DNA of 64,000 nucleotides. Source: an uncultured Acetobacteraceae bacterium (GTDB lineage Bacteria; Pseudomonadota; Alphaproteobacteria; Acetobacterales; Acetobacteraceae). The notes under the pieces were generated by a model that was not told the origin of the DNA, did no database searches, and worked only from the letters and a program-made list of their open reading frames with translations. Within the stretch, counting starts at the first letter, position 1; each line of letters starts with the position of its first letter. The stretch spans positions 14,007 through 78,006 of the forward strand of contig CAXSGE010000011.1 in assembly GCA_964236715.1 (NCBI GenBank), in the 5' to 3' direction. A program made the translations under genes and the position numbers. Below, piece by piece: positions 16,136 to 26,184 of the stretch.

Positions 16136-16876
16136 ATGGAGGCATCGGCGCCGTTGATGTCGCTGCGCGGCATCGGCAAGGCCTTCGGTTCGCTGACCGC
16201 GTTGCGCGACGTTGATCTCGACCTGTATGGCGGCGAATGCCTGGGCCTGGTCGGCGACAATGCCGCCGGCAAGTCCACCCTCAGCAAGGTCATGTCCGGG
16301 GCCTGCATTCCCGATTCCGGCAGCCTGGCCCTGTCGGGCAAGCCAGTGCGGCTCGACGGCCCGGCCGAAGCGCGAGCGCGCCGCATCGAAATGGTCTATC
16401 AGGAGCTGAGCCTGTGCGACACGATCGACGTCGCGGGCAACCTGTTCCTCGGCCGCGAGATCTGCCGCGCCGGATTTCTCGACAAGGCGGCGATGGCGCA
16501 GCAAGGCCGCCAGATGCTGGATGCGCTCGGCATCCGGATTCCGCGCATGAGCGCCAAGGTCGCGCGGCTGTCGGGCGGCCAGCGCCAGTCCATCGCCATC
16601 GCCCGTGCCGCCTCGTTCAACCCGCGCGTGCTGCTGCTGGACGAGCCGACATCGGCGCTTGCGGTGGCCGAGGTCGAGGCGGTGCTGGCCCTGATCAACC
16701 GCGTCAAGGCGCAAGGCGTCGCGGTGGTGCTGGTGACGCACCGGCTGCAGGACCTGTTCCGCGTCTGCGACCGCATCGCGTTCATGTATGAAGGCGCCAA
16801 AGTGGCGGAACGCTTGATCGGCGAGACCAACTTGGAGGAGGTGGTGCAACTGATCGTCGGCGGGGCGCGGGCATGA
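16136..16876 (+). CDS. sugar ABC transporter ATP-binding protein
   Basis: GDNAAGKST, LSGGQRQ, LLLDEPT. Confidence 0.93.
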   Translation: MEASAPLMSLRGIGKAFGSLTALRDVDLDLYGGECLGLVGDNAAGKSTLSKVMSGACIPDSGSLALSGKPVRLDGPAEARARRIEMVYQELSLCDTIDVAGNLFLGREICRAGFLDKAAMAQQGRQMLDALGIRIPRMSAKVARLSGGQRQSIAIARAASFNPRVLLLDEPTSALAVAEVEAVLALINRVKAQGVAVVLVTHRLQDLFRVCDRIAFMYEGAKVAERLIGETNLEEVVQLIVGGARA

Positions 16877-17880
16877 GCCGCAGCTTGGCGGTCGACGACG
16901 GCGCGGCGCACAGCCGGGCCGACTTCCTGCTCGAACATGCGCAGGTCTTGTCGATCGCCGCGTTCTTTGCGGTGTGCTGTGTCATCTTCGCCGCGGTCTC
17001 GCCGGTGTTCCTGCTGCCGGGCAACCTGCTCAACCTGCTGCGGCAACTGGCGCCGATGCTGATCGTGGCGTCCGGCATGACCTTTGTCATCACCACCGGA
17101 GGGATCGACCTGTCGGTCGGCTCCATCGTTGCGTTGACCAATGCCTTGACGGCGATCGCCCTGGCCGCCGGGCTGCCCTGGCCGCTGGTGGCAATGGCTA
17201 TGCTGCTGCTGGGCGCCCTGGTCGGCGCATTGCAGGGATGGTTCACCGCGTATCAGCAGATTCCGTCCTTCATTGTTACCCTGGCCGGGCTGTCGATGCT
17301 GCGTGGCTTCGCGTTGCTGCTGACCCAGGGCTACTCGATCCCCATCGCCGGCGCGCCGGGGTTCATGGCGATTGGACGCGGCTGGGCGTTCGGCGTGCCG
17401 GTGCCCGCCGTGCTCGCCGCCGGGGTGGCCGTCGTCTTCTATGTCGTGCTCGGCCAGACCCGCTACGGCCGGCAGATCACCGCGGTCGGCGCCAATGCCG
17501 AGGCGGCGCGCCGGGTTGGCATGCCGGCCCGGCTAGTGGCGGCCTCGGCCTTCATGCTGACCGGCGTCACGTCCGCGATGGCCGGTTTGATCATCGCCGC
17601 GCGGCTCGGGTCCGGCTCGTCCAATGCGGCGGTCGGGTTCGAGCTTGACGTGATCGCTGCCGTGGTGCTGGGCGGCACGTCGCTGCTAGGCGGCAGCGGC
17701 ACGATCATCGGCACGGTGCTCGGGGCCTTGACCATCGCCGTCATCGGCAACGGGCTGATCCTGGTCCACACCTCGCCCTTCCTGGTCCAGATCGTTACCG
17801 GCGCCATCATCCTGGCCGCCATCTGGCTCAACACCCGCGTCTTCGCCCGGCTGACCAATCGCCGGCGCGCTGGCGGCTAG
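16873..17880 (+). CDS. sugar ABC transporter permease (RbsC-like)
   Basis: GGIDLSVG, ELDVIAAVVLGGTS; ATGA overlap. Confidence 0.93.
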   Translation: MSRSLAVDDGAAHSRADFLLEHAQVLSIAAFFAVCCVIFAAVSPVFLLPGNLLNLLRQLAPMLIVASGMTFVITTGGIDLSVGSIVALTNALTAIALAAGLPWPLVAMAMLLLGALVGALQGWFTAYQQIPSFIVTLAGLSMLRGFALLLTQGYSIPIAGAPGFMAIGRGWAFGVPVPAVLAAGVAVVFYVVLGQTRYGRQITAVGANAEAARRVGMPARLVAASAFMLTGVTSAMAGLIIAARLGSGSSNAAVGFELDVIAAVVLGGTSLLGGSGTIIGTVLGALTIAVIGNGLILVHTSPFLVQIVTGAIILAAIWLNTRVFARLTNRRRAGG

Positions 17881-17893
17881 GGGGAATAGCATC

Positions 17894-18955
17894 ATGTCGG
17901 AACTCTCGCCCGCGCATGTCGGTTCCGGCCAGGCGATGACCGTGGCCGGCCCCATTGCGGCGGCCGACCTCGGCGTCACGCTGATGCACGAGCACCTGCT
18001 GAACGATTGCCGCTGCTGGTGGAACAAGCCGAAGGACCCGCGGCGTTCACGGCTTGCCTGCGACCCGGTGCATCCGGGCATCCTGGGCGAGCTGCGCATG
18101 GACCCGTTCGTCAACCTCAGCAACTGCACGCTGGATGACGAGCGCCTGGCCATCGCCGAGCTGGCCGACGTGGCGGCGCTGGGCGGGCGCACCGTGGTCG
18201 ATCCGACCTGCCAGGGCATCGGCCGCGATCCGCGTGCGCTGCTGCGCATTTCGCAGGCGACGCAGCTCAACGTGGTCATGGGCGGCGGCTTCTACCTGCA
18301 AGCCTCGCATCCCGAACGGGTGCACGCCATGTCGGCGGGCGACATCGCCGACGAGATCGTCCGGGAGGCGGTCGAGGGTGTCGCGGGCACCGGCATCCGC
18401 ATCGGCCTGATCGGCGAGATCGGCATCTCCGCCGATATGACGGACGAGGAGCAGAAATCGCTCCGGGGCGCCGCGCAGGCGCAGCGCCGCACCGGATTGC
18501 CGTTGATGGTGCATCTGCCCGGCTGGTTCCGCGTGGCTCACCGCGTGCTGGACGTGGTGGCCAACGAGGGCGGCGACCTGCGCCACACCGTGCTGTGCCA
18601 CATGAACCCGTCCGGCGGCGACGTCGAATATCAGGTGGCGCTCGCGGAACGCGGCGCATTCCTGGAATACGACATGATCGGCATGGATTTCTGGTATGCC
18701 GACCAGGGCGTGCAATGCCCGTCCGACGAGGACAATGCGCGCGCCATCATGGGGCTGATCGAGCGCGGCTGCCTCGACCGGCTGCTGCTGTCGCAGGACG
18801 TGTTCCTCAAGATGATGCTGACCCGGTATGGCGGGTTCGGCTACGCCTATCTCCAGCGGCATTTCCTGCCGCGCCTGCGCCGTCACGGCGTCACCGAGGC
18901 TCAGGTCGCGCAGATGATGGCCGGCAATCCCCGCCGCGTCTTCTGCTCGGTTTGA
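17894..18955 (+). CDS. phosphotriesterase-related (Php/PTER) metallohydrolase
   Basis: GVTLMHEHL, GIGRD, IGEIG, MVHLP, LCHMN, LLSQDVF, NPRRVF. Confidence 0.9.
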   Translation: MSELSPAHVGSGQAMTVAGPIAAADLGVTLMHEHLLNDCRCWWNKPKDPRRSRLACDPVHPGILGELRMDPFVNLSNCTLDDERLAIAELADVAALGGRTVVDPTCQGIGRDPRALLRISQATQLNVVMGGGFYLQASHPERVHAMSAGDIADEIVREAVEGVAGTGIRIGLIGEIGISADMTDEEQKSLRGAAQAQRRTGLPLMVHLPGWFRVAHRVLDVVANEGGDLRHTVLCHMNPSGGDVEYQVALAERGAFLEYDMIGMDFWYADQGVQCPSDEDNARAIMGLIERGCLDRLLLSQDVFLKMMLTRYGGFGYAYLQRHFLPRLRRHGVTEAQVAQMMAGNPRRVFCSV

Positions 18956-18977
18956 GGCCGCGCTTGACCATGCGCCG

Positions 18978-19850
18978 ATGACCACGGTGTTCGTGCTGGG
19001 CAACGCGGGGATCGACCTGTCGCTGGCCTTGCCGCATCTGGCGCGTCCCGGCGAGACCGCCGTCGCCACGTCGGCGATGCGTTCGCCGGGCGGCAAAGGG
19101 CTGAACCAGGCCGTTGTCGCGGCCCGCGCCGGAGCGCGCGTGCGGTTCTGCGCGCCGGTGGGCGCCGATGCGGATGCGGGCGTCGTCGCCGTGGCGCTGG
19201 CGCTTGAGCCGCTGGCGGAGCTGCGGTTGCTGGCCAAGCCGGTCCCGACCGACCAGTCGATCGTCATGGTTGCCGCCGATGGCGAGAACAGCATCGTCAG
19301 CCTGTGTGGCTGCGCCGACGCGCTGACCGCCGCCGAGGCGGCGTCCTTCGCCGCTGAGTCGACGCGCGAGGACTATCTGCTGCTCCAGGGCAACCTGACC
19401 GAGTTGGCGACATTGGCGGCTGCCCGTGCTGCGGCGGCCCGCATCGTGCTGAACGCCGCCCCGTTGCGCTGGCCGATGACGGGACTGCTGCGGTTTTGCG
19501 AGGTGGCGGTTGTCAATCGAGGCGAGGCGGAGGCGATCACAGGTTTGTCCGACCCGGAGGCGGCAGCGTGGCGGCTACGTGCGCTCGGTTGCGCAACGGC
19601 CATTGTCACGCTGGGCGCCGGCGGCTGCCTTTGGGTGGATGCAGGAGGCGCGGGCCACATGGCGGCCGTAGCCGTGACGCCGCTCGACACCGCCGGAGCC
19701 GGGGACACGTTCTGCGGCGTGCTGGTGGCGCAGTTGGGGAGGGGCACCGCCTTGCCGGACGCCATCGCCGCCGCCCAAGCAGCGGCAGCGCTGTCGGTGA
19801 CGCGCCGTGGCGTCTTTGCGGCGTTGCCGCGCGCAGTGGAGCTGGGCTGA
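18978..19850 (+). CDS. PfkB/ribokinase family sugar kinase
   Basis: PGGKGLNQAVVAARAG, DTAGAGDTFCG. Confidence 0.92.
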   Translation: MTTVFVLGNAGIDLSLALPHLARPGETAVATSAMRSPGGKGLNQAVVAARAGARVRFCAPVGADADAGVVAVALALEPLAELRLLAKPVPTDQSIVMVAADGENSIVSLCGCADALTAAEAASFAAESTREDYLLLQGNLTELATLAAARAAAARIVLNAAPLRWPMTGLLRFCEVAVVNRGEAEAITGLSDPEAAAWRLRALGCATAIVTLGAGGCLWVDAGGAGHMAAVAVTPLDTAGAGDTFCGVLVAQLGRGTALPDAIAAAQAAAALSVTRRGVFAALPRAVELG

Positions 19851-20150: not shown

Positions 20151-22325
20151 ATGCGGCAGTTATCGATCTACTCGAAAATCATCCTGACCTTGCTCATAAC
20201 GGGCCTGGTTTGTTTAGCGGCGGGCGGCGTCATCGGCTACCGCTCCGGCGAGCAGGCTTTGACGGAGTCCGTGAGCGTGCAGCTCACGGCGCAGCGCGAG
20301 CTTAAGCGCCAGCGGGTCGAAAGCTACATCCGCAACCAGCTTCGCTTTACCCAGGCGATTGGCAGCGCCCCCGAGACCGCCGCGGCCACCAAGGCCCTGA
20401 TCGCCGCGTTCCGGGACATGCACGCGGATGTGCAAGCCGGCACGCCGGGCGCGCAAGCCGACACCGCCGTCTTGGAGGCTTGGTACAACAAGGAGTTCTT
20501 GCCCCATCTGGACAAGATCGCCGGCGACCACACGCCGCTTGAAGGCTTGATGCCTGCCGACCCCGTCGCCCGGCGGCTCCAAGCCGACTACATCGCCAGG
20601 AACCCCGCTCCGACCGGCCAAAAGGGCTTGCTAACCGCCGCGCCGGGCGGCTCGCGGTATGACGCCGCCCACGAGCGCTTTCATGCCATCATGAAGCGCG
20701 CCGCACAAACGGTCGGGTTCTATGACATCAACCTCATGGATGCCGCGACCGGCGACGTCGTTTACACCGTCGCCAAGGAACCCGACTTCGCCAGCAACAT
20801 GTATCACGGCCCCTTCGCCCGCTCCGGCTTCGCCCGTGTGGCGCAGCGCGCCCTCGATCCCGAGAATGGCGGCAAGGCAGTCGTGGAGGACTTCTCGGCA
20901 TACTTGCCTTCGGCCCTCGCGCCGCAGATGTTCACTGCGGTGCCGATCATCGCCGACGGGCAGACCATCGGCGTCTTCGTGGCCCAGATCGACATCAGCA
21001 CCCTCAATTCGCTGCTCACCGACGACGGCGCGTGGCAAAGGACCGGCCAAGGCGAAACGGGCGAGGTGCTGATGGTCGGCGAGGACCGTCTGCTCCGCAG
21101 CCAGTCGCGCTTCATGGCAGCCGATCCCGAGAAGTTCCTCGCCCAGGCGCGGGCGAACGGGCTGCCGTCGTCGGTTGCCGACCAGATACGCACCCTTGGC
21201 ACCACGATCCTCTATATGCCGGACCGCAACAACGCGGTGGAGGGCGCGTTCCACAACAAATCGGGGATCGCTCGCTTCCTCGATTATCGCGGCGTCGAGG
21301 TGGTGTCGGCCTACGGACCCATCGAGATCGCCGGCCTGCGCTGGGCCATACAGGCGAAACAGGACACCGCGGAGGCATTCGCCCCAGCGGCCCGGCTTGA
21401 GCGCAACCTGCTGGTCGCCGCCGCAGCCGCCGCGATCGCGTTGACGTTCCTGGCCCTCGTTTGCGCCCGCCTGTTCATGCGCCCGCTGCAGCGGGTGATA
21501 CGCGCCATGCAGCCGATATTATCGGGGGCTGCGGGGACCAGCGTCGAACCGGTCGAGGTCCACGGCAGCGATGAGTTCGCGGCCCTGGGCCGAGGCTACA
21601 ACGCCATGGTCGCGACCATCGGCATGCGGGAACAGCAGGTCAAGGCGGCGGAGCTGAAATCGGACAGCCTGCTGCGCAGCCTCTATCCCGCCGGGCTCGT
21701 CGAGCGGATGCGCAGCGGGACCGCGCTCACGGCGGAGACGATCCCGAACGTCACGGTCGCGGTCACCTGGATCGACGGACTCGATGCGCTTTCCATGGAC
21801 CGCAGCGCCGCGGAGATGAGCGAAGTGCTGAACACGCTGCTGGACGTGATCGGCGGATCGGCTGCGAGCCACGGCGTCGAGCCGGTGCGCTCGCTGGGCG
21901 AAAGCCACATCCTGGTCTGCGGCTTGTCCTCGCCCCAGCTCGACCATGCCATGCGCACCCTGGCGTGGGCGCAGAGCGCAACCCAAGCGGTGCAACGCCT
22001 CGGGACCGGGTGGGCGTCGTCGATCACGTTGCGGTTCGGCCTTGCGTCGGGCGAGATCGACGTTCTGCTGCTAGGACACGGCAACAGCCTGTATGACATT
22101 TGGGGCCGGACCCTCAGCATCGCCCGGCTTATCGCGCTCCAGGCAGAACCCGGCTTCGTTCGGGTCAGCGAGAGCACTTACAACTTGCTGACCGGCGTCG
22201 AGGGTTTCGAGGCCGTCCCGCCGATCGTGGCCCCGGCGTTCGGCGCCGTGCAGACCTGGGCGCGGCAGGCGGCGCCAGCATCGGCCAGGATGGTATCCGG
22301 ACCGCAAACCCAAGCGGCGGAGTAG
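20151..22325 (+). CDS. membrane sensor: periplasmic Cache-like domain, HAMP and degenerate class III cyclase domain
   Basis: Two TM segments, YTVAKEPDFASN, DYRGVEV, HAMP DEFAALGRGYNAM, cyclase-like LRFGLASG...YDIWG. Confidence 0.85.
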   Translation: MRQLSIYSKIILTLLITGLVCLAAGGVIGYRSGEQALTESVSVQLTAQRELKRQRVESYIRNQLRFTQAIGSAPETAAATKALIAAFRDMHADVQAGTPGAQADTAVLEAWYNKEFLPHLDKIAGDHTPLEGLMPADPVARRLQADYIARNPAPTGQKGLLTAAPGGSRYDAAHERFHAIMKRAAQTVGFYDINLMDAATGDVVYTVAKEPDFASNMYHGPFARSGFARVAQRALDPENGGKAVVEDFSAYLPSALAPQMFTAVPIIADGQTIGVFVAQIDISTLNSLLTDDGAWQRTGQGETGEVLMVGEDRLLRSQSRFMAADPEKFLAQARANGLPSSVADQIRTLGTTILYMPDRNNAVEGAFHNKSGIARFLDYRGVEVVSAYGPIEIAGLRWAIQAKQDTAEAFAPAARLERNLLVAAAAAAIALTFLALVCARLFMRPLQRVIRAMQPILSGAAGTSVEPVEVHGSDEFAALGRGYNAMVATIGMREQQVKAAELKSDSLLRSLYPAGLVERMRSGTALTAETIPNVTVAVTWIDGLDALSMDRSAAEMSEVLNTLLDVIGGSAASHGVEPVRSLGESHILVCGLSSPQLDHAMRTLAWAQSATQAVQRLGTGWASSITLRFGLASGEIDVLLLGHGNSLYDIWGRTLSIARLIALQAEPGFVRVSESTYNLLTGVEGFEAVPPIVAPAFGAVQTWARQAAPASARMVSGPQTQAAE

Positions 22326-22329
22326 CTCG

Positions 22330-23763
22330 ATGACCGATCTTCTGCCCTGGCCCTCATTCTCGGGCAACGCCGTATGGGCGCTCGTGCTGATGCTGGGCTA
22401 TCCAACGGTGGCGATCGGGTTGATCGAGGCCTCCCGCGCGCTTGGCGCCCGCAACGAGTTCACGTCCGACATCCTGCGCCAGCTTGCCTATCTGCTGCTG
22501 CCCACAGGCGCGGCCTGGCTGATCCTGCGGGTGCTGGCCGAACTGCCGCCCGACAATTGGGCTGTGCGCACCGTCGAAACCGCGTTCGCGCTCACCAGCC
22601 TGTATCTCCTGCTCCGGCTTGCCCAGGCAGGGCTGATGCGCCTGCTCGATGAGCAGATGAGCGCGCCGAAACTGCTGCTCGACATCCTGCGCATTGGCCT
22701 GTCGCTGGTTTGGGGCGCGGTGGCGGTGTCGAGAATCTGGGATGTCGATCTCGCCAGCCTGTTCGCCGCGGTGGGCGTTGGCTCGATCGTGCTCGGCTTT
22801 GCCCTGCAGGAGTTCTTGGGCAACCTCCTGTCCGGCCTCGGGCTGCTCTCGGCGCACAAGTTCGGCATCGGCGACTGGATCGTCATCGACGGCAAGGCCG
22901 CCCGGGTGGTGGAGATGGACTGGCGCACCGTGACGCTGGTCAACAACGACGGCAGCCGCCTCGTCGTCGCCAACAGCACGCTCGCGAAGGGCAACCTGGT
23001 CATCGCCGCCCGCTCGAACGACCCCGCCGCCATCACCATTCCGCTGACGTTCGGCGTCGACATCCCGCCCGAATTGGTCCGCGAGGCCGTGCTGGAAGCC
23101 GGGGGCGCGCTCCCGGGCATGGTCGGCGCCGGAAGCGTGAAATGCCGTGTGACCGCGATCTCGGACACGGCAATAAACTATGCGGCGGTACTGCCCGTCG
23201 CAAACCCAGGAATCCTTTCAGGCCCGCGCGACGAGTTCCTCAGCCGGTTCTGGTATGTCGCCCAGCGTCGCGGATTGCGGCTGCAGATTGGGCCGGCGCC
23301 TGACGGAGCGGCCGCGCCCGACGCGCAATCCCGCCTCCGGATGCTCACGACGGCGGGCGTTTTCCACGGCGACGCCGACGTCCTGTCACAGCTCGCGCAG
23401 GCCAGCGCCTTCCGCCGTTACCGCCGCGGCGACCTCGTGATGTCAGCCGGTGCGGTCGCGCCGGATGCCGTCCTGGTGTTGGCGGGCGAGCTCGCCGTGT
23501 CGGTGCCGAACACGGGCGTCGAGGCCCGGCTTGAATTGGTCGGGTCGGGACAGCTTTTTGTCCTGCATGAAATCTTGGCCGGCGGCTCCTGCCCTGTTCG
23601 CGTCGTGGCGGAAGCGGACGCCGACGTGCTGGCGATCCCTGCTGCGGCCCTGGCCGACGTGATGGAGCGCAACCGTGTCATCCTTCGCGACGTGAATGCA
23701 CTGGCGGAGGCGCGGCGCCTCGCCATCAAGCCGCTGAACCGGGGCCTGCGCACCGCCGCGTGA
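22330..23763 (+). CDS. MscS-family mechanosensitive channel with C-terminal cNMP-binding-like domain
   Basis: LGFALQEFLGNLLSG, FGIGDWI, MDWRTV, ANSTL; C-terminal YRRGDLV...VLAGEL CNB fold. Confidence 0.9.
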   Translation: MTDLLPWPSFSGNAVWALVLMLGYPTVAIGLIEASRALGARNEFTSDILRQLAYLLLPTGAAWLILRVLAELPPDNWAVRTVETAFALTSLYLLLRLAQAGLMRLLDEQMSAPKLLLDILRIGLSLVWGAVAVSRIWDVDLASLFAAVGVGSIVLGFALQEFLGNLLSGLGLLSAHKFGIGDWIVIDGKAARVVEMDWRTVTLVNNDGSRLVVANSTLAKGNLVIAARSNDPAAITIPLTFGVDIPPELVREAVLEAGGALPGMVGAGSVKCRVTAISDTAINYAAVLPVANPGILSGPRDEFLSRFWYVAQRRGLRLQIGPAPDGAAAPDAQSRLRMLTTAGVFHGDADVLSQLAQASAFRRYRRGDLVMSAGAVAPDAVLVLAGELAVSVPNTGVEARLELVGSGQLFVLHEILAGGSCPVRVVAEADADVLAIPAAALADVMERNRVILRDVNALAEARRLAIKPLNRGLRTAA

Positions 23764-23942: not shown

Positions 23943-25343
23943 ATGTCGTCCGCAGACTTGCATTACCTGCCGCTGCTCGAAGTCTCGGAGCGCATCCGGC
24001 GGCGGGAGCTCTCGCCCGTGACGGTGGCCGACGCGATCCTTGACCGGATCGCCCGGCTGGACGGGCAGGCGCGCAGCTACACGGCCGTGCTGGCGGACCG
24101 TGCCCGTACCGCCGCCGCGCGTGCGGAGGCGGAGATCGCCGCCGGCTTCTGGCGCGGCCCGCTGCACGGCGTCCCGCTTGCGGTGAAGGACCTCTGCGCC
24201 ACCAGCTTCGCGCCGACCACCGGCGGCATGCCGCTGCGGCGGAACTCGACGCCTGACCACGACGCGACGGTCGTGCGCCGCCTTGAGGACGCCGGCGCGG
24301 TGATCCTCGGCAAGCTGCAGATGACCGAGGGCGCCTACACCAGCCATCATCCGGACGATCCGCCGCCGCTCAACCCTTGGAATGCCGCGCACTGGGTCGG
24401 CTCGTCGTCGACCGGGTCGGGCGTCGCGACGGCGCTGGGCCTGTGCTTCGGCTCGCTCGGCTCGGATACCGGGGGATCGATCCGGTTCCCGTCGGCCACC
24501 TGCGGGCTGACCGGGATCAAGCCGACCTGGGGGCGGGTCAGCCGGCATGGCATCCTGCCGCTGGGGGCGTCGCTCGATCACGTCGGGCCGATGGCGCGTA
24601 ACGCGGCCGATGCGGCGGCGATCCTGGGCGTCATCGCCGGCGCCGATGCGGACGACCCGACCGCGATCCAGCAGCCAGTGCCCGATTATCTCGCAGAACT
24701 GGGCCGGGGCATCAGCGGCGTCACCATCGGGATCGACCGCAGCTACAACGGCGACGGCATCGACCGCGAGGTCACCGAAGCCGTGCGGGCCGCGGAGGGC
24801 GTCTTGGCGGCCCTCGGCGCGCGAATCCGCGAGATCGAGTTCCCGCCGACGGACGCGCTGCTGCGCGGCTGGATTCCGTTCTGCGCCGTCGAAACAGCGA
24901 TCGCGCACCAGGGCAGCTACCCGGCGCGCGCCGGCGAATATGGCCCGGACCTCGCCAACCTGATCGAGCACGGGCGGCGGATGTCGGCGACCGAGTTCGG
25001 CGGGATCATGCACGAGCGGCTGGAGTTCTCCGGACGGCTGGCCGCGGTGTTCCAAGACGTGGACCTGCTGCTGATGCCGACCATGCCGGTTCCGGTGCCA
25101 AGCCTGGACCGCATGGCGGAGTATGGGCAGGACGATGGGGTGCTGCTGCGGATGCTGCGCTTCACCGCCCCGTTCAACTGGGCGGGCAACCCGACCATCA
25201 CCCTGCCGAGCGGCATGGACGCGGCGGGCCTGCCGCTCAGCCTGCAGCTTGTCGGGCCGCACGTGTCGGAGGCGCTGCTGTGCCGCGCCGGACACGCGTT
25301 CCAGCAGCGCACCGATTGGCATACGCGGCGCCCGCCGGGGTGA
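23943..25343 (+). CDS. amidase (amidase signature family)
   Basis: GPLHGVPLAVKD, GSSSTGS, GSDTGGSIRFPS. Confidence 0.95.
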   Translation: MSSADLHYLPLLEVSERIRRRELSPVTVADAILDRIARLDGQARSYTAVLADRARTAAARAEAEIAAGFWRGPLHGVPLAVKDLCATSFAPTTGGMPLRRNSTPDHDATVVRRLEDAGAVILGKLQMTEGAYTSHHPDDPPPLNPWNAAHWVGSSSTGSGVATALGLCFGSLGSDTGGSIRFPSATCGLTGIKPTWGRVSRHGILPLGASLDHVGPMARNAADAAAILGVIAGADADDPTAIQQPVPDYLAELGRGISGVTIGIDRSYNGDGIDREVTEAVRAAEGVLAALGARIREIEFPPTDALLRGWIPFCAVETAIAHQGSYPARAGEYGPDLANLIEHGRRMSATEFGGIMHERLEFSGRLAAVFQDVDLLLMPTMPVPVPSLDRMAEYGQDDGVLLRMLRFTAPFNWAGNPTITLPSGMDAAGLPLSLQLVGPHVSEALLCRAGHAFQQRTDWHTRRPPG

Positions 25344-25367
25344 TGGCTGGGTCGCGGCAGCTTCCAT

Positions 25368-25383
25368 CGGCACGAAAGTCGCA
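25368..25383 (+). promoter_or_regulatory. candidate sigma54 promoter
   Basis: CGGCACGAAAGTCGCA: GG-N10-GC spacing, about 40 nt upstream of the SDR start. Confidence 0.45.
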
Positions 25384-25422
25384 TTGATATCCAAAAGCTG
25401 CACAAAGCCGGAAGGATGGTTC

Positions 25423-26184
25423 ATGGATCTCGGGCTCAAAGGACGCCGCGCGCTCATCACCGGCGGCACGAAGGGGATTGGCCGCGCCATTGCGGAGTGC
25501 TTCGCCCAGGAGGGCGCGAATGTGGCCCTGTGCGCGCGCAATGCGGGCGAAGTCGCCGACGCCGTTTCCGCGTTGCGCGGCAAAGGCGTGGCAGCATTCG
25601 GCCAGGCGCTCGATGTTGCGGACGGACCCGGGCTGCACAGTTTCGTCGAGGCAGCCGCAGCCGCACTGGGCGGGCTGGACATCGTGGTGGCCAACGTCAG
25701 CGCACTGGCGATCGGCCAGGATGAAGCCGCCTGGCGCGCCGAGTTCGAAACGGACCTGATGGGGGCGGTGCGCCTGGTAGAGGCCGCCCTGCCCCACCTG
25801 GAGCGGTCCGGCGCGGCCTCGATCACTTTCATCTCCAGCGTGTCCGGTCGCGAGATCGACTTTGCTGCAGGCGCCTACGGGGCGATGAAGGCGGCACTGG
25901 TGCACTACGCCCAGGGCCTCGCCTTCCAGCTCGCGGGCAAGAACATCCGGGCCAACACGGTTTCGCCGGGCAACACCTATTTCGACGGCGGCGTATGGGC
26001 GCGGATCGAGCGCGACAACCCGGCGTTCTTCGCCCAGGCATTGGCGCTCAACCCCACCGGACGCATGGGGAAACCCGAGGAGATGGCTCGCGCAACCGTG
26101 TTCATTGCAAGCCCGGCCGCGAGTTTCGTCAGCGGCACAAACCTGGTCGTGGACGGAGCGTTGACGCGAGGGGTGCAGCTTTGA
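25423..26184 (+). CDS. short-chain dehydrogenase/reductase
   Basis: TGGTKGIG, YGAMK, NTVSPG. Confidence 0.93.
   Translation: MDLGLKGRRALITGGTKGIGRAIAECFAQEGANVALCARNAGEVADAVSALRGKGVAAFGQALDVADGPGLHSFVEAAAAALGGLDIVVANVSALAIGQDEAAWRAEFETDLMGAVRLVEAALPHLERSGAASITFISSVSGREIDFAAGAYGAMKAALVHYAQGLAFQLAGKNIRANTVSPGNTYFDGGVWARIERDNPAFFAQALALNPTGRMGKPEEMARATVFIASPAASFVSGTNLVVDGALTRGVQL

Follow-up and report, generated by a model that had tools for sequence, protein, structure and literature searches.

In the KCNH (EAG/hERG) channels, which are eukaryotic, tetrameric and voltage-gated, a channel-attached domain with the cNMP-binding fold no longer binds nucleotide and regulates gating through protein-protein interaction, the partner being an intramolecular PAS domain. 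In Mycobacterium tuberculosis, the product of Rv2434c, the gene beside Rv2435c, is MscS-like and has a cNMP-binding domain. Rv2435c itself is reported to have a dCache_1 extracellular domain (PMC4822843) and a class III cyclase domain (PMC3961136). The bCNG channels are bacterial cyclic-nucleotide-gated homologues of MscS (Caldwell et al., 2010; Malcolm et al., 2012; both cited in PMC13591265), for which there is no structure and for which the physiological role and the effect of nucleotide on gating are not understood (2026 review, PMC13591265).

Here we analyze a gene pair of a lichen-associated bacterium in which a sensor protein of 724 residues, with a cyclase-homology domain, is encoded directly upstream of an MscS-like channel of 477 residues with a cNMP-binding-homology domain (Table 1; positions refer to the window, that is, the whole 64,000-nucleotide stretch of DNA that was analyzed). 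The original prediction described the genes as 4 nt apart, full length and intact in frame, and both the open reading frames and the junction sequence agree with that description. The sequence GGAG stands 7 nt ahead of the channel start codon, and, judging from the layout of the junction, translational coupling of the two genes is likely. Scans for promoters and terminators upstream and downstream of the pair yielded nothing informative, and a search for a conserved third gene around the pair across related loci found none. The sole recurring neighbor is an SDR paralogue, of ~30% identity, the position of which varies between loci.

Table 1. Sequence features of the sensor-channel gene pair
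Feature	Position	Strand	Basis or content
Sensor pseudo-cyclase gene	20151..22325	+	TM1, periplasmic dCache-like domain, TM2, HAMP, degenerate class III cyclase-homology domain
Periplasmic dCache_1-like sensor domain, ~residues 31-412	20241..21386	+	partial Pfam dCache_1 match
HAMP domain, residues 439-489	21465..21617	+	Pfam PF00672, 26.6 bits
Cyclase-homology domain, residues 528-687	21732..22211	+	Pfam PF00211 (Guanylate_cyc), 65.6 bits
Gene junction	22319..22332	+	GGAG, stop TAG 22323-22325, 4-nt spacer ctcg, ATG 22330
MscS-like channel gene with C-terminal cNMP-binding-homology domain	22330..23763	+	ORF, Pfam, AlphaFold2 model
Transmembrane helices	22363..22854	+	model helices 12-69, 77-106, 114-137, 142-175; pore helix GVGSIVLGFALQEFLGNLLSG conserved
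cNMP-binding-homology domain, residues 362-448	23413..23673	+	Pfam PF00027, 39.4 bits; beta-roll in AlphaFold2 model
Phosphate-binding cassette remnant, residues 407-427	23548..23610	+	alignment to Thermus CRP 4ev0, column statistics
Long C-terminal helix, residues 449-476	23674..23757	+	AlphaFold2 helix, column statistics

Catalytic site of the sensor protein and nucleotide pocket of the channel

The sensor protein has 120 homologues of 56-98% identity, typically 722-726 residues long. Its periplasmic domain, for which the dCache_1 match covers residues 239-399 and scores 37.9 bits, below the 45-bit curated cut-off, is strongly conserved among homologues; a sequence search with this domain for a solved homologue found none, and the domain has no evident amino-acid-type motif. 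The same sensor is joined to other output domains in many genomes (L019-L080).

The cyclase-homology domain belongs to its family both by Pfam score (cut-off, 21.9 bits) and by comparison with solved cyclases (E = 1e-20 to 1e-15). We mapped the catalytic hexad by aligning the domain with the solved mycobacterial Cya structures 5o5k and 4p2m; all six catalytic positions are replaced: D by W540, K by R580, D by E584, D by R653, N by S656, and R by L660. The metal-binding aspartate pair is absent (W540 and E584), the substrate-specifying pair, Lys/Asp for ATP or Glu/Cys-type for GTP, is absent (R580 and R653), and the transition-state Asn and Arg are absent (S656 and L660). The six-position alignment thereby agrees with the original prediction that the domain lacks catalytic residues, a prediction based on the motifs VTVAVTWIDG at residue 534, VRSLGESH at residue 579, and WGRTLSIARLI at residue 651. 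Column statistics show Asp at position 540 in 0 of 121 homologues; within the window's clade Trp, Leu or Phe always occupies this position, and neither transition-state position is fixed (S, G or A at 656; R, C or L at 660). Other replacements are conserved, namely R580 (115/121), E584 (117/121), and R659 (114/121), as are D542 and D649. From the known roles of the replaced residues, we infer that the window's cyclase domain would carry out no catalysis. The residues R580, E584, R653, and R659 form a conserved charged pseudo-site at which a phosphate-bearing ligand might bind.

The channel has the pore and cage of MscS homologues (MS_channel_2nd, PF00924, 45.3 bits), and sequence comparison with the PDB matched MSL1, MscS, and YnaI. 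In the AlphaFold2 model (mean pLDDT, 87.6), for which the best structural matches are YnaI, MscK, and MscS (Foldseek probability, 1.00), the channel core is intact, with an MscS/YnaI fold and with extra N-terminal helices as in YnaI. The pore columns A147, G149, G151, S152, A158, L159, Q160, L163, G164, N165, S168, and G169 are invariant.

The C-terminal domain of the channel has the cNMP-binding fold, both by Pfam score (cut-off, 27.5 bits) and by its modeled beta-roll and helices, and lacks the phosphate-binding cassette of bCNG channels (Gly-Glu ... Arg-Ser/Thr-Ala). Alignment to Thermus CRP places V411-L412 at the cassette Gly-Glu and C421-P422-V423 at the Arg-Ser/Thr-Ala; the cassette consensus in the window's clade is GQLMVLQEMLAGGSSPVRVVA. 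The original prediction, which read the cassette as missing from the motif GQLFVLHEILAGGSCPVRV at channel residue 407, was right about the absence and wrong about the location of the Gly-Glu: the Thermus CRP alignment matches V411-L412 to it and assigns G407-Q408 to the upstream GxxF turn. As in the cyclase domain, there are conserved replacements: E414 in 121 of 121 sequences and P422-V423 in 120 of 121, with R424 also conserved among homologues. In the window's clade the C-terminal helix is conserved to the last residue (R462, R463, A465, I466, P468, L469, R474). We considered the C-terminal tail as a KCNH-type intrinsic-ligand strand and rejected this assignment, residues 449-476 being a single helix in the AlphaFold2 monomer model. 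Judging from the known roles of the residues lost, the window's channel domain would not bind cNMP.

The conservation of these replacements, which are not random (R580, E584, R659, D542, and D649 in the one protein; E414, P422, V423, and R424 in the other), is consistent with a non-canonical small ligand: the Arg-rich pseudo-site would bind, or slowly convert, a phosphorylated metabolite or nucleotide, and the variant cNMP-like domain would bind that or another small molecule. Many CRP/FNR-type domains bind other small molecules, and four pairs in the family that combine a canonical cyclase with a Ser-Pro-Val cassette fit a low-affinity local messenger in part of the family. However, the presence of Trp, Leu or Phe in place of the first metal Asp and the variability of the transition-state positions argue against chemistry at the site, the cassette Gly-Glu is also gone in the window's clade, and the gene neighborhood points to no candidate. 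We regard a non-canonical ligand as unlikely.

Selection on the degenerate domains

For the cyclase domain dN/dS is 0.06-0.36, and for the cNMP-like domain 0.16-0.32, values similar to those for the Cache and MscS parts of the proteins. Both frames are also intact in variants of ~98% identity from other lichen and rock metagenomes; the 40 best-supported strain-level differences listed comprise 30 synonymous and 10 non-synonymous changes, and the one insertion among strain variants is in frame. The same substitutions are kept in more than 100 homologues of 56-98% identity, 120 homologues having been examined for each protein. In a domain-wise comparison, the stem of the window's clade shows only a modest excess of divergence in the cytoplasmic domains. 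Two MAGs (L007, L009) have frameshifted copies, which may be assembly errors.

Because the same substitutions recur in 120 homologues per protein and the pair recurs in four phyla, the degenerate motifs are not a product of chance. The original prediction had named relaxed selection as the sign of decay; we find the opposite, with dN/dS across homologues and the synonymous excess at strain level refuting decay. We conclude that both degenerate domains are under purifying selection.

A search of the organism's own assembly, which is 83% complete, for a working cyclase found none, and no class I or class IV cyclase; the only other PF00211 match (G000:C5, L082) is degenerate too (KLTGNSL, WGDVIRTAELM). 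Elsewhere the genome encodes one protein (G000:C23:46020) whose cassette is of the canonical Gly-Glu...Arg-Ser-Ala type. Given this cassette and the 83% completeness of the genome, use of cAMP by the organism is possible.

These results bear on the reading that the two genes are decaying remnants, as the frameshifted copies might suggest, or that catalysis is restored by pairing with another cyclase-homology protein, for which the second such protein in the genome would be available. We find this reading scarcely credible: purifying selection is clear at both the deep and the strain level, which largely refutes decay; the window's protein has neither the metal set nor the substrate/transition-state set, so that neither half-site could be supplied to a heterodimer; and the second cyclase-homology protein is degenerate itself.

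Linkage of the two genes and evolution of the pair

Our survey comprised 114 channels, 39 with a sensor gene directly upstream and 75 unlinked, with the window's channel in addition. The linked loci, which come from Pseudomonadota, Acidobacteriota, Verrucomicrobiota, and Cyanobacteriota, each have a full-length sensor gene (HMM coverage, 7-714 of 719) immediately upstream on the same strand, and in ~21 of the 39 the genes overlap (ATGA and similar) or are no more than 8 nt apart. The window has the same arrangement, with a co-oriented dCache-HAMP-cyclase-homology gene upstream at a spacing of 4 nt. Among sampled cyanobacterial genomes, ~7% carry the linked pair.

The cassette Arg is absent from all 39 linked channels and from the window's channel; among unlinked channels, 54 of 75 have it and 21 do not. 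This association goes back to what is essentially a single evolutionary origin and should not be counted as 39 separate events. In the channel tree, 44 rows of linked, Arg-less channels are set apart from 70 unlinked channels by a single split (SH-like support, 100), and the window's channel lies inside the linked clade, in a subclade of 11 rows (support, 100). The cyclase tree yields the same subclades as the channel tree, and from this congruence we conclude that the sensor and channel genes are co-inherited. A literature search, which covered sources other than the primary bCNG papers, found no account of the linkage or of the Arg loss.

The partner cyclases range from canonical to fully degenerate: 4 of the 39 have all six residues (DKDDNR), and five keep five residues. 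The original prediction of matched loss at both ends holds for the window to the extent that both sites are degenerate there, but loss is not strictly matched, since the Arg is absent also where the partner keeps all six residues (four pairs) or five (five pairs). Since the Arg is absent from every linked channel examined, whatever the state of its partner, the linked family inherited the channel-side loss from its ancestor. The cyclases lost their catalytic residues later, gradually, and more than once, in several lineages. The window falls in the most degenerate subclade, in which the cassette Gly-Glu has been lost in addition to the Arg and which has spread horizontally among soil and lichen bacteria.

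MscS-like channels can function alone, and four members of the linked clade (L167, L175, L177, and a tandem copy in L168) lack a partner gene within ~5 kb, as would be expected if the two proteins acted independently and were merely co-transcribed. The receptor would then signal elsewhere, and the channel would be an ordinary osmotic safety valve that retains a vestigial domain. Against independent action, the receptor carries no further output domain, the two genes are co-inherited in four phyla and have moved horizontally as a unit, gene overlap is common, and the loci have no conserved third gene. Independent action is, in our estimation, highly improbable.

A proposed sensor-channel module and its relation to known systems

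The pair probably signals without ordinary cAMP. According to the reading that we favor, to which we assign a probability of roughly one-half, the pair would constitute a two-gene sensor-channel module in which a periplasmic ligand gates the channel by direct protein contact, without a diffusible cyclic nucleotide. We infer the direct contact, the direction of signaling, and the physiological role of the module, as follows. The sensor protein would be a dimeric membrane receptor, with a periplasmic dCache-like sensor and a HAMP domain, and its cyclase-homology output would be unable to make cAMP or cGMP, since Trp stands in place of the first metal Asp and the five remaining catalytic residues are also replaced. 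The channel, the sole effector of the module, would be of MscS type and presumably heptameric, with a C-terminal domain that has the cNMP fold without the residues that hold the ribose-phosphate. The periplasmic ligand would alter the conformation of the HAMP and cyclase domains of the receptor, the change would pass by direct protein contact to the cNMP-homology domain of the channel (or to its membrane paddles), and the outcome would be changed gating of a solute-release pore. We know of no citable precedent for a dimer-to-heptamer interface of this kind.

The ancestor would have been a pair of a receptor cyclase and a cNMP-domain channel, in which the channel lost the cassette Arg a single time, when the linked family arose, and catalysis was lost from the cyclase afterwards, in several lineages. 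The four pairs that combine a canonical DKDDNR cyclase with an Arg-less cassette imply that the cNMP-like domain might still read nucleotide in some members. More tentatively, and with the balance somewhat against it, a second-messenger circuit may have been hard-wired as a protein-protein switch, with the cyclase-homology dimer and the cNMP-homology domains serving as a dedicated docking and allosteric interface. If so, the gradation of partners from canonical cyclases to dead ones, each beside an Arg-less channel, would record the steps of the conversion, a large part of the "bCNG" family would be ligand-gated two-component channels that use no nucleotide, and the Rv2435c/Rv2434c pair would possibly be another such channel.

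Direct coupling could instead run through the membrane, with the two transmembrane helices of the receptor touching the peripheral helices of the channel and with the cyclase-homology and cNMP-like domains serving only as scaffolds for dimerization and for capping of the cage. The predicted YnaI-like extra N-terminal helices of the channel would suit such coupling, as would the fact that both products are integral membrane proteins, presumably from one coupled transcript, and the C-terminal domain of bCNG channels reportedly restricts mechanical gating. Membrane coupling nevertheless leaves unexplained both the exact coincidence of Arg loss in the cNMP-like domain with acquisition of the cyclase partner and the selection on the cytoplasmic domains, which is as strong as elsewhere in the proteins, and we judge it decidedly unlikely.

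The results divide cNMP-domain MscS-like channels in two: unlinked channels, mostly with a canonical cAMP pocket, and a single, widespread linked clade, in which the pocket Arg is never present and which stands behind one particular receptor "cyclase" that has repeatedly lost catalysis yet has stayed under selection. The result provides a tangible and testable example of a pseudo-enzyme retained together with a pseudo-receptor domain as a signaling pair, and the family is a natural series in which to study how a diffusible messenger becomes dispensable. A cultured host for genetics is Roseiarcus fermentans DSM 24875, in which the pair is present (L012). If the mycobacterial pair falls in the same clade, the results also bear on an uncharacterized M. 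tuberculosis cyclase.

The likeness to KCNH channels is one of analogy only, the channels being unrelated: the partner proposed here is a separate pseudo-cyclase, and the modeled tail of the window's channel is one long helix, with no strand-type intrinsic ligand. By its described domain content, Rv2435c/Rv2434c has the same architecture and gene order as the window's pair. With active dCache-HAMP receptor adenylyl cyclases (among them L015, L016, and the Nostocales-type partners L159, L161, L162, and L166) the window's sensor protein shares whole-length homology at 29-33% identity; those cyclases have the canonical hexad (FADIVGF or FSDLHxF, KT[VI]GD, WGDTVNxAxR), whereas the window's protein has 0 of 6 residues. 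With bCNG channels the window's channel shares the MscS-homologous pore and cage and the C-terminal cNMP-binding fold; in contrast to them, its whole linked clade lacks the cassette Arg and its subclade also the Gly-Glu, and channels with the canonical cassette fall on the unlinked side of the channel tree.

Gene pair and residues of its two sites

ORF calls bear out the original prediction of two adjoining, co-oriented reading frames 4 bases apart: the gene for the sensor, a dCache-HAMP-cyclase-homology protein, ends in a TAG stop followed by 4 bases before the gene for the channel, an MscS-like protein with a C-terminal cNMP-like domain, and GGAG lies 7 bases 5' of the second ATG. An NCBIfam scan of both proteins gave no assignment more specific than Pfam, and no solved homologue of the sensor domain was found by sequence. 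The flanking genes, named from their translations alone, look unrelated to the pair; none of them is conserved beside the pair in other genomes, and the neighbourhood holds no other conserved gene.

Coordinates of the pair, its flanks and a second cyclase-homology protein of the host assembly (G000)
Feature	Position	Strand	Properties
Sensor ORF	20151-22325	+	724 aa; Pfam: partial dCache_1, HAMP, Guanylate_cyc (65.6 bits)
Channel ORF	22330-23763	+	477 aa; Pfam: MscS domains, cNMP_binding (39.4 bits)
Upstream flank	window 16873-19850		ABC sugar-type permease, phosphotriesterase-family protein, PfkB-type kinase
Downstream flank	window 23943-26184		amidase, short-chain dehydrogenase
Second cyclase-homology protein	G000:C5:97552-101010 (L082 1-1971)		~650-780 aa; Cache-like N-terminus; motifs MKLTGNSL, WGDVIRTAELM

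Aligned to solved adenylyl cyclases of mycobacteria, the window sensor has W540 and E584 at the first and second metal Asp, R580 and R653 at the Lys and the substrate Asp, and S656 and L660 at the Asn and the Arg, and thus retains 0 of the six canonical catalytic residues (DKDDNR). Alignment of the channel C-terminal domain to Thermus CRP places F410-V411-L412 at Phe-Gly-Glu and C421-P422-V423 at Arg-Ser-Ala of the cassette, the phosphate-binding Gly-Glu...Arg-Ser/Thr-Ala motif of cNMP domains; the Glu and Arg are both absent, as predicted, but the 'GQ' quoted for this site is a turn 4 residues upstream. Given the established roles of the cassette Glu and Arg in cNMP binding and of the six cyclase residues in catalysis, these substitutions imply a sensor predicted to lack cyclase activity and a channel predicted to lack canonical cNMP binding.

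Conservation and selection

Each protein has >100 database homologues (56-98% identity), with many sensor and channel matches on the same contigs. Among 121 aligned sensors, position 540 is Leu or Trp, never Asp; R580 is found in 115 and E584 in 117; and positions 653, 656 and 660 are Arg or His, Ser, Gly or Ala, and Arg, Cys or Leu, respectively. Across 121 channels, the cassette remnant is GQLMVLQEMLAGGSSPVRVVA, with E414, P422 and V423 nearly invariant. A reading in which the pair works through a non-canonical small ligand is possible but unlikely.

By the Nei-Gojobori method, pairwise dN/dS comes to 0.06-0.36 in the cyclase-homology domain and to 0.16-0.32 in the cNMP-like domain, and the Cache and MscS parts lie in the same range as these two degenerate domains. 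In ~98%-identical copies from lichen and rock metagenomes, both frames are intact, with a single 3-nt in-frame insertion, and 30 of the 40 best-supported differences among these variants are synonymous. Both degenerate domains are under purifying selection, and decay of the pair is excluded. The alternative of decay, or of catalysis rescued by a heterodimer, is contradicted by these selection data, and we give it almost no weight. The region 20151-23763 occurs in lichen and rock metagenomes of three studies, with at least half of sampled words in five runs (one of them maybe the source of this DNA), which suggests that the host is a lichen- or rock-surface-associated organism.

Linkage, graded cyclase loss and distribution

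Searching 1.84 billion representatives with a profile returned 2,828 channel relatives at E <= 1e-30; of the 138 best full-length ones, only ~15 have the canonical cassette, Ser taking the place of the Arg in most. From sampled genomes of Pseudomonadota (400), Cyanobacteriota (300), Acidobacteriota (250) and Verrucomicrobiota (250), we retrieved ~10 kb around each of 100 channel genes. The cassette Arg is absent from all 39 linked channels surveyed, that is, those with a co-oriented sensor gene directly upstream, and from the window's own channel, whereas it is kept in 54 of 75 channels without an upstream cyclase-homology gene (Fisher p ~2e-15 for Arg loss vs. linkage, representing essentially one evolutionary event). 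A 114-channel tree groups the Arg-less linked channels in a single split (SH-like support 100) of 44 rows, 40 of them linked, and places the window channel within it in a subclade of 11 rows that has a long stem. Each of the 39 linked partners is homologous to the window's sensor over its full length, and the sensor tree repeats the channel-tree subclades, indicating that the pair is co-inherited. Alphaproteobacteria, Acidobacteriota and Verrucomicrobiota are interleaved within the window's subclade, indicating joint horizontal transfer of the two genes. That these co-inherited proteins have independent functions is highly unlikely.

Three cyanobacterial channels of the linked clade (L167, L175, L177) lack the Arg and have no sensor gene within ~5 kb; they are orphans whose partner may have been lost or relocated. 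Unlinked Pseudomonadota channels (L113-L115, L118, L121, L127) have recurrent cassettes, Gly-Glu...Trp-Gln-Ala and Gly-Glu...Glu-Val-Cys, conserved within families; such variants (21/75 unlinked channels lack Arg) show that Arg loss occurred also outside the cyclase-linked clade.

The original prediction of matched loss holds in that both sites are degenerate in the window, but not in timing. All six canonical residues (motifs verified) are present in 4/39 linked partners, five in 5/39 (usually with just the transition-state Arg missing), four in 6/39, and three or fewer in 24/39, with replacement residues that differ from subclade to subclade. The channels partnering canonical linked cyclases have the cassette Gly-Glu...Ser-Pro-Val, indicating that Arg loss is ancestral to the linked family and that cyclase decay came later and repeatedly. 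The window's subclade is the extreme, with no more than a single canonical residue out of six (Arg at 660, in some members) and with Gly-Glu lost as well. This strengthens the case that pairing is independent of catalysis.

A genome-collection scan identified close relatives (52-74% identity) in Rhodopila and other Acetobacteraceae, in Roseiarcus (including cultured R. fermentans DSM 24875), in Terriglobales/Acidobacteriaceae and in Verrucomicrobiae, and distant full-length relatives (~30%), with Pfam architecture identical to that of the window pair, in a Waterburya cyanobacterium, one Acidobacteriota genome and one further cyanobacterial genome. Among sampled genomes, the linked pair occurs in ~20/300 cyanobacterial, 2/250 Acidobacteriota, 1/250 Verrucomicrobiota and 0/400 other Pseudomonadota genomes. 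The channel gene is 3' of the sensor gene in every locus long enough to judge, and the genes overlap or lie <=8 nt apart in ~21/39 linked pairs. Two loci (L015, L016) share the sensor architecture, have no channel neighbour, and encode fully canonical cyclases. A cyanobacterial locus (L168; G685:C5:96800-109800) is a tandem duplication: on one strand it has two genes for sensor pseudo-cyclases (EKSENA, EKSENE) and, 3' of them, two channel genes. Two Verrucomicrobiota MAGs have a cyclase-homology region broken into two or three frames (L007 6439-7034, L009 7492-8177), reflecting either assembly indel error (one MAG is long-read) or real sensor pseudogenisation with the channel intact.

Proposed control of the pore and relation to solved channels

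Conservation extends to both degenerate domains, which always occur together, and the pair has no effector other than the channel. The evidence best supports a reading, to which we assign a probability of about one half, in which a ligand-sensing receptor would control an MscS-type pore with no diffusible cyclic nucleotide involved; the simplest route for the signal would be contact of the pseudo-cyclase with the cNMP-homology domain, as originally proposed.

The host's own assembly (4.9 Mb, 83% complete) encodes a single further cyclase-homology protein, which is degenerate too, and it has neither a class I nor a class IV cyclase. The gene for this second protein runs into the beginning of a gene for a 266-aa membrane protein, and an ATPase-like ORF comes next; the locus may represent another pseudo-cyclase module, one that includes a transporter. 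Of ten cNMP-fold proteins in the assembly, one has a canonical cassette, and cAMP use by the host is therefore possible. In other genomes, canonical-cassette channels lie 0.15-1.2 kb from unrelated DKDDNR cyclases (L202, L204, L205 in Acidobacteriota; L208 in Verrucomicrobiota), with one gene between them in three of the four; these may be genuine messenger-using (cAMP-gated) arrangements, and they are useful controls.

With a pLDDT of 87.6, AlphaFold2 models the channel confidently. The model combines the beta and alpha-beta domains of MscS with extra helices like those of YnaI; its cNMP-type beta-roll has a cassette helix of four residues, and a long helix at the C-terminus extends to the last residue. 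Coupling of sensor and channel via membrane helices is quite unlikely, and contact between the two degenerate domains remains our preferred reading. No MscS-cNMP channel was found among solved structures; those nearest to the model are YnaI, MscK and MscS.
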